DNA of 64,000 nt from a phage. Numbering within the stretch: the first letter of the stretch is position 1; every line of letters starts with the position of its first letter. Where the stretch lies: the sequence record PZ347775.1. The stretch is one strand, 5' to 3'. Shown one piece after another: positions 51,398-54,060 of this stretch. The notes under the pieces were generated by a model. It made no database searches. It saw nothing but the letters and a program-made list of their open reading frames with translations, and was not told the DNA's origin. Both the position numbers and the translations under genes were made by a program.

Positions 51398-51594
51398 TTT
51401 GAATGCTCTATAATTAATTTTAAGGCTTCTTCATGCACCTTACCTAATTGTATATGTCCAGTTTTAATTGTGTAAGCTTTGTGGAGCTGATTAGATAAGA
51501 GCTCACATACGAGCTCCTTGTCATAATTTTTAAATAGCTGGTCAATACGTTTCTTGTGGGCTTTCTTAAGCTGGCGTTTATTTAAACGAGCCAT
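51394..51594 (-). CDS. hypothetical protein (66 aa)
   Basis: ORF track. Confidence 0.45.
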   Translation of the reverse strand: MARLNKRQLKKAHKKRIDQLFKNYDKELVCELLSNQLHKAYTIKTGHIQLGKVHEEALKLIIEHSK

Positions 51595-52112
51595 TAATAA
51601 CCTCGGTCTTGACGAGCGAAGTTTTCAGCATTTTTCAGATAATAAAGTTTAAAGATTTCTTCAGCCGTAAGACCAAGACCTTGGAACATGTTCAGAACGA
51701 AATGAAGAATATCAATCATTTCGAATTTAATTTCCAACTGGTCTTGTGGAGACAAATCAGTAATTAGAGTTTCACGGCGTTCACCATGTTGAGCTTTCCA
51801 AGGCTTCCATACAGCAGATGCATCTTTTTCGCCATTGCTCATACCGCCAAGAGATGTCAGAAGTTCACGGAATTCATCGTCAATATAATCTTTCTGATTA
51901 CGTAGCCAATCAACAACTTCACCAGCAGTAGCCAAATCATCAGGATGACGATTATATTCAGGTTTATCTTTAGCTAAACGAACTTGCAGAGATTTCTGCA
52001 TATCAAGCATAACCTGCAGCGGGTCTTTTTCATCACAGAGAATATCCCAGTATTCATTTTGAGCTTTATCAGCGCCTTCGATCAGATGACTACATTCGTT
52101 GAAATGTGGCAT
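51594..52112 (-). CDS. 56: dCTP pyrophosphatase (dCTPase-dUTPase)
   Basis: 172 aa; MazG-like all-alpha NTP pyrophosphatase features; position as T4 gene 56. Confidence 0.8.
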   Translation of the reverse strand: MPHFNECSHLIEGADKAQNEYWDILCDEKDPLQVMLDMQKSLQVRLAKDKPEYNRHPDDLATAGEVVDWLRNQKDYIDDEFRELLTSLGGMSNGEKDASAVWKPWKAQHGERRETLITDLSPQDQLEIKFEMIDILHFVLNMFQGLGLTAEEIFKLYYLKNAENFARQDRGY

Positions 52113-52113
52113 G

Positions 52114-52764
52114 TTATTTTTCCTTTCTTATGAAGTTTTCTATCATATGTCTATAGCAGATATTAGGATAACCTGCCTTGACAGCTATTTTATTAAATTT
52201 TGTGCGCTTAGGTCTATTATTATAAACCCATAATTCATAAAGCGCATCATAACTATTCCATATTTCTCCTCGCCTAGGATTTGGTAAACCGTATCGAGGC
52301 GAATTTTTACCGCTAAATCTTCCTTTTCGGGCTTTACTCATATTAGCCTTGGCTTCATCGGATATAATTTTACCTTTATGAGCTAGACGCATTTTGGCTT
52401 TAGTTTCTTCTGGGGTCTTTTTGCCTTTAATCCATGACGGCTTGCCATATCTAGGATTATTTTCACCCGAGAAAAGAACAGAGTTTTGGATTTTAAGAGT
52501 TTCTATTAATCTACTTGTTAATTTAACACCTTTATTATATCGCATTAAATTTACAGCATAATGCAATCCTCTCACATCTGGATATATTTTAGTTAATAAT
52601 CTATGAGCTATAAAATGCTCACGCGCAGTTAACTCAACAAGATTGTTTTTGTCATCTGCTCCTCCTATACATCTAGGAATTATATGATGGCGTTCTTTAT
52701 ATCCGCCAAGATGCCGGCATTTAGCTTTTGTAATTAAAGCCGAGTAAATTTTTTGGTAATTCAC
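52114..52764 (-). CDS. HNH homing-endonuclease-like protein
   Basis: 216 aa; HNH motif ERHHIIPRCIGGADDKNNLVELTAREHFIAH; basic repeats NPRYG...GKK; apparent GTG start with AAGGA SD. Confidence 0.7.
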   Translation of the reverse strand: MNYQKIYSALITKAKCRHLGGYKERHHIIPRCIGGADDKNNLVELTAREHFIAHRLLTKIYPDVRGLHYAVNLMRYNKGVKLTSRLIETLKIQNSVLFSGENNPRYGKPSWIKGKKTPEETKAKMRLAHKGKIISDEAKANMSKARKGRFSGKNSPRYGLPNPRRGEIWNSYDALYELWVYNNRPKRTKFNKIAVKAGYPNICYRHMIENFIRKEK

Positions 52765-52834
52765 ATATATCCTTTCAATTCATTGGTTAGTAGATTAATT
52801 ATACAATAAATATATAAAGCAATAAGGAGGATAT

Positions 52835-53035
52835 ATGGTACAAAAATTAATGGCACTTGTTAATGCCATCAAAGGTAATAAAAAACGTATAGCTTTTACT
52901 ATTTCTGCTATGATAGGAATTTTACTTTGGAATTTTGTTTTATCGCCAGTTGCTATTGCTCATGGCGTTAGTATTCCAGTAATTACTCTTGATACATTCG
53001 TAGATTTAGCATTTGCTTTAGTTGGGTTAATTTAA
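52835..53035 (+). CDS. small hydrophobic protein (66 aa), opposite strand to neighbours
   Basis: ATG preceded by AAGGAGG 7 nt upstream; two hydrophobic segments; convergent with gene 61; no clear promoter. Confidence 0.35.
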   Translation: MVQKLMALVNAIKGNKKRIAFTISAMIGILLWNFVLSPVAIAHGVSIPVITLDTFVDLAFALVGLI

Positions 53036-54060
53036 ATCTTAGCATATTTAGATAGCCGCATTTTAGCCATCAACCCTTGGGCAATATTATTTTTCATATA
53101 TTCCATAATTTGTTCAGGGGTTGCACCTTCCTTTCTAATCATATCATTAACATCTTTTGATTTCCAGGGAGATTTGTCCCAAAACATAACCCTTTCTCCT
53201 GCATCAACTAATTTAGTCATTCGTTTAATAGTGTCAGGATGACGAGGTTCATTATCTAAAACCCATACACGTCTATCTTTAAATGGAACAATTTCTAGGT
53301 CTAATTGACCACCCGTAATAGCTATACCATTTTCAATAAAAAGCGAATCTATAGGTCCTTCTAGAACATATACATCACCATCTTTAACCCGTTCAACACC
53401 ATAGATTTTTGTTGCCTCAGGATAAGCTTTGATGGTGATATATTTTTGGGGAGCATCTTTCTTTAATGCACGCCCTTGAAAAGACTCAGCTTTTCCATTA
53501 GCATTATAAATTGGAATAACAAGACGAGGCTCAGGTATTTCCTTTTTGTATGTTCCTGGTGCTATACTATTAACTAATTTAGGCCATTCGGTTGTAAACC
53601 AAAGATATTTCCATTTGTCCTTTGGAATACAACGAGCTTTTACGTATTTTATAATTGGATGGTCTTCCGCCAGTTTATCTAATCTAACACATGACGGAAG
53701 AGATTTAATTATTTTCTTCTCAGGTTGTTTAGGAAGTTCTTTAGGTTTTTCTACTGGACGACTTTTACCTTTTTCTTTTCTTATTTCAAAGATATACTCA
53801 CGATATAAATCGGGTTCAAACTCCTTTAAATATATTCCGATTGGTGCATGATAGTTGCAGTTATAACAATGAATATTTCCTTCATTATTATCGCCATAAT
53901 ACCATCCACGGGCTTTATTTTGGTCGGTTTTTGAATCTCCACAAACAGGGCATCTAAACCGCAATTTAAAAGTTGAACTATTATTTACTTGTGTGAATTT
54001 AGGTAAATGAGCTAATGCACGATATGCAAACTCATTATCAATCCAAGGTATTGATGACAT
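53032..54060 (-). CDS. 61: DNA primase gp61
   Basis: 342 aa; N-terminal zinc ribbon CPVCGDS...CYNC; T4 primase size. Confidence 0.9.
   Translation of the reverse strand: MSSIPWIDNEFAYRALAHLPKFTQVNNSSTFKLRFRCPVCGDSKTDQNKARGWYYGDNNEGNIHCYNCNYHAPIGIYLKEFEPDLYREYIFEIRKEKGKSRPVEKPKELPKQPEKKIIKSLPSCVRLDKLAEDHPIIKYVKARCIPKDKWKYLWFTTEWPKLVNSIAPGTYKKEIPEPRLVIPIYNANGKAESFQGRALKKDAPQKYITIKAYPEATKIYGVERVKDGDVYVLEGPIDSLFIENGIAITGGQLDLEIVPFKDRRVWVLDNEPRHPDTIKRMTKLVDAGERVMFWDKSPWKSKDVNDMIRKEGATPEQIMEYMKNNIAQGLMAKMRLSKYAKI

Follow-up and report, generated by a model that had tools for sequence, protein, structure and literature searches.

A candidate Mob-type HNH homing endonuclease gene and a conserved gene for a small, probably membrane-located protein between genes 56 and 61 of a T4-like phage

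Organisation of the locus

The stretch of DNA analysed here (64,000 nucleotides of sequence record PZ347775.1, referred to below as the window) derives from a T4-like phage (genus Tequatrovirus), and its closest records are 96-98% identical over 24 kb. The locus lies between two genes that are transcribed from the minus strand. Gene 56, which encodes dCTPase, occupies positions 51594-52112 and matches PHROG 173 at 5.6e-47, in agreement with the annotations in related records. Gene 61, which encodes primase, occupies 53032-54060, matches PHROG 47 at 9e-107, and its product is 98.8% identical to T4 gp61. The identities of both genes are backed by PHROG and Pfam matches.

Two ORFs are found in the interval. 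The first has a GTG start, encodes 216 amino acids, and lies on the minus strand at 52114-52764, as seen in the ORF listing and by reading of the sequence. This HNH gene is located directly upstream of gene 56, its presumed homing target. The second ORF, of 66 amino acids, is found on the plus strand at 52835-53035 and is preceded by a Shine-Dalgarno sequence (AAGGAGG, 52824-52830). The two ORFs are divergent and share a control region of 70 bp, while the small ORF and gene 61 are convergent and overlap by 4 nt at their stops. The features described in an initial annotation are all present where it placed them, as the ORF listing and the sequence itself confirm.

The possibility that either ORF arose by chance was considered and rejected: the product of the longer one belongs to PHROG 655 ('homing endonuclease', 1.3e-59) and that of the shorter one to PHROG 2024 ('unknown function', 1.9e-30). 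A further minus-strand ORF of 31 amino acids (52761-52856) was dismissed, being conserved in T4 only where it is antisense to the small ORF.

The HNH protein

The longer ORF had been described at the outset as a free-standing homing-type endonuclease with an HNH motif and NPRYG repeats. Reading of the sequence confirms the motif (HHIIPRC...NN...EHFIAH) and shows two NPRYG-type repeats, and the assignment is borne out by the PHROG 655 match and by an HMM search, in which Pfam NUMOD3 is found in two stretches of the protein at 8e-7, above the gathering score. The Pfam HNH family (PF01844) scores 18.8 bits (E 0.0019), marginally below its gathering score of 21.4, so that membership of the HNH group rests on the similarity to MobE and on the motif. 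T4 MobE is 63% identical to the protein over the first 80 amino acids (E 6e-33), and in tblastn searches the identity is approximately 45% for T6 MobE and approximately 35% for MobD. The motif consists of H26-H27...N40/N41...H50...H54, and in an alignment of 50 homologues E24, H26, H27, P30, G35, N41, E49, H50 and H54 are invariant.

In the AF2 model, the first 70 or so residues are predicted with a pLDDT above 90, and strands 23-26 and 41-44 followed by helix 46-59 give the beta-beta-alpha layout of an HNH domain. The C-terminal part is modelled as helices 118-128, 135-145 and 166-214, with the NUMOD3 repeats lying among the helices. This arrangement suggests a separate, putative DNA-binding module at the C-terminus. 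The same order of HNH domain, NUMOD3-type helices and C-terminal helical DNA-binding unit is found in I-HmuI. The latter is an extended two-domain HNH enzyme (PMC2790892). A sequence search of the PDB with the HNH protein gave no match below E 0.15, fold searches recovered no solved homing endonuclease, and NCBIfam has no match for this protein or for the small-ORF protein.

By sequence criteria, this protein belongs to the free-standing HNH homing endonucleases of the Mob type, with predicted nuclease activity. Pairwise pN/pS values among copies of the gene are 0.10-0.28, which indicates that the protein is maintained by purifying selection. Dozens of GenBank records already name the gene 'homing endonuclease' or 'MobE', and a literature search for an HNH gene at gene 56 found no study.

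Boundaries of the insertion and the control region

The interval was aligned between the window, RPN226 (which has the same arrangement), ime09 (neither HNH gene nor dam), T4 (dam only), and ELT1 and IME537 (both). The expectation that the HNH gene is a mobile insertion absent from T4 is supported by this comparison. The insertion measures 649 bp and, together with two flanking repeats, covers 52121-52776 on the minus strand, as defined by alignment with the HNH-less ime09, T4 and Sf23. At each border is a copy of the 7-nt direct repeat TCCTTTC, which reads GAAAGGA in the coding direction; the copies lie at 52121-52127 and 52770-52776. GAAAGGA is the Shine-Dalgarno sequence of gene 56. The HNH gene uses the upstream copy of the repeat and gene 56 the downstream one, and the native leader of gene 56, with its Shine-Dalgarno region, holds the last four HNH codons and the stop (AGAAAGGAAAAATAAcATG).

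The cassette is positioned after the MotA-type middle promoter of gene 56 and before the gene 56 start codon. On the early (minus) strand, the control region reads ATTGCTTTA, then 11 nt, then TATAAT (52821-52798), which from its consensus we take to be a MotA-box middle promoter. This putative promoter of the HNH gene and gene 56 (52798-52821, minus strand) has the MotA box TGCTTTA at 52821-52815, an 11-nt spacer, and the -10 element TATAAT at 52803-52798. T4 has a homologous element, P(M) 16.53, whose mot-box and -10 are marked upstream of gene 56/69 in record X01416 from 1984. Given that the cassette lies between this promoter and gene 56, it should be co-transcribed with gene 56.

A hairpin resembling an intrinsic terminator is present on the minus strand at 52837-52872, with an 11-bp stem, a 4-nt loop and a following UUUUUGU. 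It follows gene 61, closely precedes the middle promoter, and is encoded on the strand opposite to codons 5-13 of the small ORF. The folding energy is -12.4 kcal/mol (z -4.16; none of 200 shuffles is as stable). The hairpin is kept in T4 and is not evident in other genera, and it looks like a terminator after gene 61. A folding check found no structure masking the HNH ribosome-binding site, and a scan for sigma-70 promoters gave 15 hits, which is not above the expectation from shuffles (11.3).

Distribution and lateral movement of the HNH gene

The HNH protein is encoded at 80% identity or more in 58 phage records, and the junction between the HNH gene and gene 56 is present in 57. There are thus approximately 57-58 carriers against approximately 690 relatives, with T4, ime09 and Sf23 as examples of empty sites. 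The carriers span four genera. In Tequatrovirus they come from Escherichia, Yersinia and Salmonella hosts; many Klebsiella Jiaodaviruses carry the gene (93% amino acid identity); the Dhakaviruses VR5 and IME08 have a variant of 79% identity; and the Mosigvirus-type carriers amount to two records. In every carrier genus the HNH gene is found directly 5' of gene 56. Even a more distant homologue on a metagenome contig, 55% identical, immediately precedes a counterpart of gene 56.

The window and Klebsiella phage 15882-6-1 offer a direct comparison between the gene and its surroundings. The HNH genes are 90.5% identical at the DNA level, with a pS of 0.31, whereas the flanking genes are 66-75% identical, with a pS of 0.65 for gene 56 and 0.74 for gene 61, and the small-ORF proteins share about 26% identity. 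This indicates horizontal transfer of the HNH gene that is far more recent than the divergence of the two lineages.

Haplotypes at the 5' end of gene 56

Where gene 56 begins (52098-52114, minus strand), the window reads ..ATAAC ATGCCACATTTCAAC, and so do all sequenced carriers of the 93-100% HNH allele. Most HNH-less genomes have a different haplotype, ..AAATA ATGGCyyACTTTAAy. Within gene 56 the two differ by fixed substitutions at nt 4 (Ala2 to Pro), 7, 9 and 12, against a background in which the other variable sites are shuffled. A synthetic query joining the HNH 3' end to the other haplotype reached only 91.9% in the best of the 57 HNH-carrying records, and no carrier with the alternative haplotype was found.

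Both haplotypes also occur in Klebsiella Jiaodaviruses, where the HNH-type one is identical to that of Tequatrovirus and the remainder of gene 56 is native Klebsiella-phage sequence. The patchy presence of the gene, its precise empty sites, the transfer across genera and the linked haplotype have the signature of an active or recently active selfish element, as judged from these sequence comparisons.

A strict two-way association between haplotype and HNH gene was considered and rejected, since at least 23 records, Sf23 and KpV477 (Jiaodavirus) among them, combine the HNH-type haplotype with an empty site. The sequence of these sites is precisely the one that a deletion between the two GAAAGGA repeats would produce. 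The linkage is therefore one-way, and the HNH-type haplotype could be the ancestral allele into which the insertion took place rather than an immunity allele.

The HNH-linked haplotype is a candidate for a target or immunity site, or for a co-conversion tract. By analogy with MobE and nrdB, the cluster at nt 4-12 is most likely the site of discrimination between self and target. Counting against this target model, the Dhakavirus variant adjoins a gene-56 start that resembles the other haplotype.

A proposed homing cycle

The haplotype pattern fits the usual homing cycle, and we infer an invasion with co-conversion of short flanks followed by occasional loss. In such a cycle, the cassette would duplicate the Shine-Dalgarno sequence and so provide a ribosome-binding site for both the HNH ORF and gene 56, and the HNH gene would be transcribed together with gene 56 from the MotA-dependent middle promoter. 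By analogy with T4 MobE, the enzyme may act during a mixed infection on the allele of a related phage that lacks the HNH gene, nicking or cutting it within or close to the 5' end of gene 56. Recombinational repair off the HNH-carrying genome would then copy the cassette and a short tract of flanking DNA. What spares the carrier itself may be its gene-56 substitutions at nt 4-12, the splitting of the site, or both. HNH-less genomes that have the HNH-type haplotype would represent later precise deletions between the GAAAGGA repeats.

It could be argued that the HNH protein has been domesticated and is no longer homing, and that it now serves to exclude competitor phages, to trigger recombination, or to modulate the expression of gene 56 or oriA. 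The purifying selection on the gene would be expected in that case, as would its placement between the promoter and gene 56, which leads to co-expression with an essential gene. Homing endonucleases that benefit the host phage have also been reported (SegB, PMC13096335). However, the gene is patchy in its presence (about 57 of about 690 records) and leaves precise empty sites, it has crossed between genera in company with a linked flanking haplotype, and marker exclusion is itself a result of homing. A domesticated role thus appears rather unlikely, and an element that homes, or did so recently, is the preferred reading of the HNH gene.

Conservation and expression signals of the 66-aa ORF

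T4 has an intact copy of the small ORF between dam and gene 61 (L005 3239-3439, corresponding to NC_000866 17738-17938), in which 61 of the 66 residues are identical. In tblastn searches the ORF is found in 693 records, with or without the HNH gene, and is nearly always convergent on the primase gene. The identity is approximately 90% in Tequatrovirus, approximately 52% in Mosigvirus (the RB69ORF029w type) and 46% in VR7, and the positional orthologues in Dhakavirus and Jiaodavirus keep W32, N33, P38, A40, G44 and P48. The ORF is unannotated in NC_000866 and X01416 and is called in an automatically annotated T4 assembly.

Signals for expression are also present on the plus strand. A putative late-promoter-like element, AATAAATA, with A at -13, is located at 52805-52812, 22 nt upstream of the start codon of the small ORF, and overlaps the spacer of the middle promoter on the opposite strand. 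An xATAAATA sequence 16-27 nt before the start codon, together with a GGAGG Shine-Dalgarno sequence, is kept in Tequatrovirus, Gaprivervirus, Dhakavirus and Jiaodavirus. The T4 late promoter has the sequence TATAAATA, 9 of the 50 sites listed for T4 are of the A(-13) type, and late transcripts may run on either strand (PMC2988020). The small ORF is thus probably read from a putative late promoter. Literature searches on T4 Ribo-seq and on unannotated small proteins found no transcript, ribosome or proteome evidence for the small ORF.

Could the conservation of this stretch be due to the terminator, the promoters and other early-strand signals, and the ORF not be a gene at all? The ORF is missing from the curated T4 record, and the strong antisense terminator hairpin lies over codons 5-13. 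However, the hairpin covers only 26 of the 198 nt and is not conserved outside Tequatrovirus. Among 12 Tequatrovirus copies, the pN/pS of 0.17 in the small-ORF frame is the lowest of the six frames and points to purifying selection on the protein, and 14 of the 26 variable sites fall at third codon positions. The ORF, its strong Shine-Dalgarno sequence and xATAAATA have been kept in four genera at 20-50% amino acid identity with six internal residues invariant, and automatic annotation calls the ORF in T4 as well as in hundreds of its relatives. That it is no gene is thus very improbable. The conservation pattern indicates that the 66-aa ORF is a real resident gene that is distinct from the HNH cassette.

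Topology and possible role of the 66-aa protein

The initial annotation had the 66-aa product as a hydrophobic protein of two helices, which agrees with Kyte-Doolittle windows that give two hydrophobic segments, residues 19-41 and 45-66. AF2 predicts two hydrophobic helices joined by a short loop, a long one at 16-42 and a short C-terminal one at 52-63. The N-terminal helix is basic, with a net charge of +5. These features suggest that the protein is probably located in the membrane, with a transmembrane helix at about residues 16-42.

Searches for relatives lead back to the same family. No Pfam or NCBIfam family matches the protein, a BFVD fold search returned only its own orthologues, and a profile of the small ORF run against 1.84 billion representative proteins found six clusters, all of them orthologues or fragments.

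One UniProt orthologue has been automatically named 'Holin', and is the sole one with such a label. The 66-aa protein is similar to class II holins and pinholins in its size, its one or two hydrophobic helices, its basic cytoplasmic N-terminus and its probable late expression. Unlike holins, it lacks a charged C-terminal tail and matches none of the described holin families, and its gene is found outside the lysis cassette, between dCTPase and primase in every genome examined. The T4 holin, T, is already encoded elsewhere. The best guess is a late inner-membrane protein that acts on the cell envelope or on lysis.

It is tempting to go further on both genes. The small protein might be a late T4 inner-membrane protein with a role at the envelope, for example in the timing or inhibition of lysis or in superinfection exclusion. 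The HNH enzyme, for its part, might recognise the translation-initiation region of gene 56, the three substitutions at nt 4, 9 and 12 being sufficient for immunity. As a combined proposal this is speculative and unlikely. If true, the enzyme would offer a simple example, open to testing, of homing in nature between phages of Escherichia and of Klebsiella.

Independence of the HNH gene, the small ORF and dam

The HNH gene and the 66-aa ORF had been suspected to form one functional module, that is, a two-gene mobile insertion or a nuclease with a membrane partner. The two are adjacent and divergent and share the 70-bp control region. Nevertheless, the small ORF is intact in T4 and in approximately 690 records, of which roughly 90% lack the HNH gene, and it lies outside the 649-bp insertion. 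The small ORF is thus neither cargo of the insertion nor a dedicated partner of the endonuclease. In ELT1 and IME537 the two are separated by dam, and in IME537 by one further gene as well. Between genera, the HNH gene is 93% identical and the small ORF approximately 26% identical, which argues for different histories. The idea of a pair was therefore abandoned, and a common module is regarded as highly improbable.

The remaining variable component of the interval is dam. The statement in the initial annotation that T4 has dam at this locus was accurate, dam being located between T4 genes 56 and 61. It was equally right that the window has no Dam-like ORF: in a tblastn search of the 64-kb window with T4 Dam the best E-value was 1.6, and no DPPY-type motif was found in a long ORF. 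T4-type Dam (at least 90% identity) is present in 182 records, as compared with approximately 503 that have the T4-type small ORF, so the absence of dam at the locus is common, and is the majority state among the close relatives of T4. Where dam is present, it is found beyond (upstream of) the middle promoter, while the HNH gene is found between the promoter and gene 56. All four combinations of the two genes have been seen (HNH+/dam-, HNH+/dam+, HNH-/dam+ and HNH-/dam-), and the two polymorphisms are thus independent. A replacement of dam by the HNH cassette, as a swap of cargo at a single site, would account for the window (HNH gene without dam) and T4 (dam without HNH gene), yet it is next to impossible given that ELT1 and IME537 have both, that ime09 and Sf23 have neither, and that the two genes occupy different points of the interval.

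The interval is therefore read as two independent things, a selfish Mob-type HNH homing endonuclease gene and a resident, conserved gene for a 66-aa membrane protein, with a probability of about 0.8.

Comparison with MobE and SegF

The closest parallel to the HNH gene is T4 mobE, located between nrdA and nrdB. MobE is encoded directly upstream of nrdB, relies on upstream transcription, and nicks the 5' region of nrdB, while its host genome is spared through polymorphisms in that region (PMC2790892). Both enzymes are free-standing, and the similarity at the sequence level lies in the N-terminal HNH domain. Each gene immediately precedes a conserved gene of nucleotide metabolism and depends on transcription shared with it, and in both cases the polymorphisms of the carrier genome cluster in the 5' part of the downstream gene (PMC2790892).

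There are also several differences. Firstly, MobE has 141 amino acids, whereas the HNH protein has 216, with two NUMOD3 motifs and an extra helical C-terminal region, and the two can be aligned over only the first 80 or so residues. The added NUMOD3 and helical region suggest that the DNA-binding part and the target differ from those of MobE. Secondly, the insertion is at gene 56 and not at nrdB. Thirdly, unlike at mobE, no internal terminator and no hairpin sequestering the ribosome-binding site was found at the HNH gene. The 5' site of gene 56 is not among the 15 homing-endonuclease sites listed for T4 (PMC2988022).

A second parallel is provided by SegF, which is associated with the same host gene: its gene follows gene 56 on the 3' side in T4 and VR7, and in T4 it separates gene 56 from soc. 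In the work of Belle et al. from 2002, SegF is said to cut gene 56 of T2 and to drive local marker exclusion. SegF is a GIY-YIG enzyme and so belongs to a catalytic family unrelated to that of the HNH protein, and it is found on the opposite side of gene 56; it is absent from the window. In the T-even gene pool, gene 56 is flanked on both sides by homing-endonuclease sites, those of the HNH gene and SegF, and this bracketing helps to explain the strong mosaicism of gene 56.

Implications

The HNH gene adds a Mob-family endonuclease at a site outside the 15 of T4 itself, together with a concrete hypothesis for its target, although the practical value is modest. It also provides clear evidence that such a gene has been transferred between phage genera with different hosts. 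The small ORF represents a conserved, apparently late membrane-protein gene that is missing from NC_000866, and it is thus overlooked in transcriptomic and proteomic studies that use that record.

The small open reading frame in the T4 reference

In the curated reference record of T4 (NC_000866), dam and gene 61, encoding primase, are separated by a 310-bp gap that is apparently 'empty'. This gap contains an intact, conserved copy of the small plus-strand membrane-protein ORF of 66 aa, located at NC_000866 17738-17938 (+; 3239-3439 of the extracted T4 locus) and preceded by AAGGAGG and GATAAATA. Many relatives carry an annotation for this ORF, as does the automatically annotated T4 assembly OZ209023.1, but NC_000866 and X01416 do not.

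A strong terminator-like hairpin of the early strand (window 52837-52872, -) lies within the small ORF, antisense to its codons 5-13. The mRNA of the small ORF itself would carry the same palindrome just 3' of the start codon. On the same minus strand, a GTG-initiated ORF of 31 aa (window 52761-52856) overlaps the starts of both the HNH homing endonuclease gene and the small ORF. Its conservation in T4 is confined to the portion that lies antisense to the small ORF, and this candidate was therefore dismissed as almost certainly spurious.

Two alleles of gene 56

Gene 56, encoding dCTPase, was compared between the window (51594-52112), the T4 locus (1771-2286) and locus L011 (3162-3683). The window gp56 is 74% identical to that of T4, versus 98.8% for the adjoining gp61, and 85% identical to gp56 of Dhakavirus VR5. 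Within Tequatrovirus, gene 56 exists as two deeply diverged alleles, with about 71-74% and 97-99% identity to the window, respectively. A history of recurrent conversion by the flanking endonuclease genes (the HNH gene and SegF) would be consistent with this two-allele pattern.

One record of the locus has an odd host attribution. 'Pseudomonas phage PsgM02F' (OR584013.1; H5) is 96.7% identical to the Escherichia-type Tequatrovirus of the window across the locus, HNH gene included, and its recorded host is Pseudomonas coronafaciens, which is odd for a T4-like coliphage.

Cargo between genes 56 and 61

In Escherichia phage IME537, gp144 (186 aa; L001 2713-3273, -) is encoded directly upstream of dam, with a 1-nt overlap. 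Its Pfam match to DpnII, a restriction endonuclease, is weak (E 0.0045) and falls below threshold. Because DpnII cuts unmethylated GATC, the site methylated by Dam, gp144 and dam may form a phage-borne restriction-modification-like pair. Klebsiella phage KpV477 (Jiaodavirus) has three other genes upstream of gene 56 (L014 1588-2825), one of them annotated as a DNA methyltransferase, on a site that lacks the HNH gene and carries the HNH-type gene-56 haplotype. The 56-61 interval is a general hot spot for cargo.
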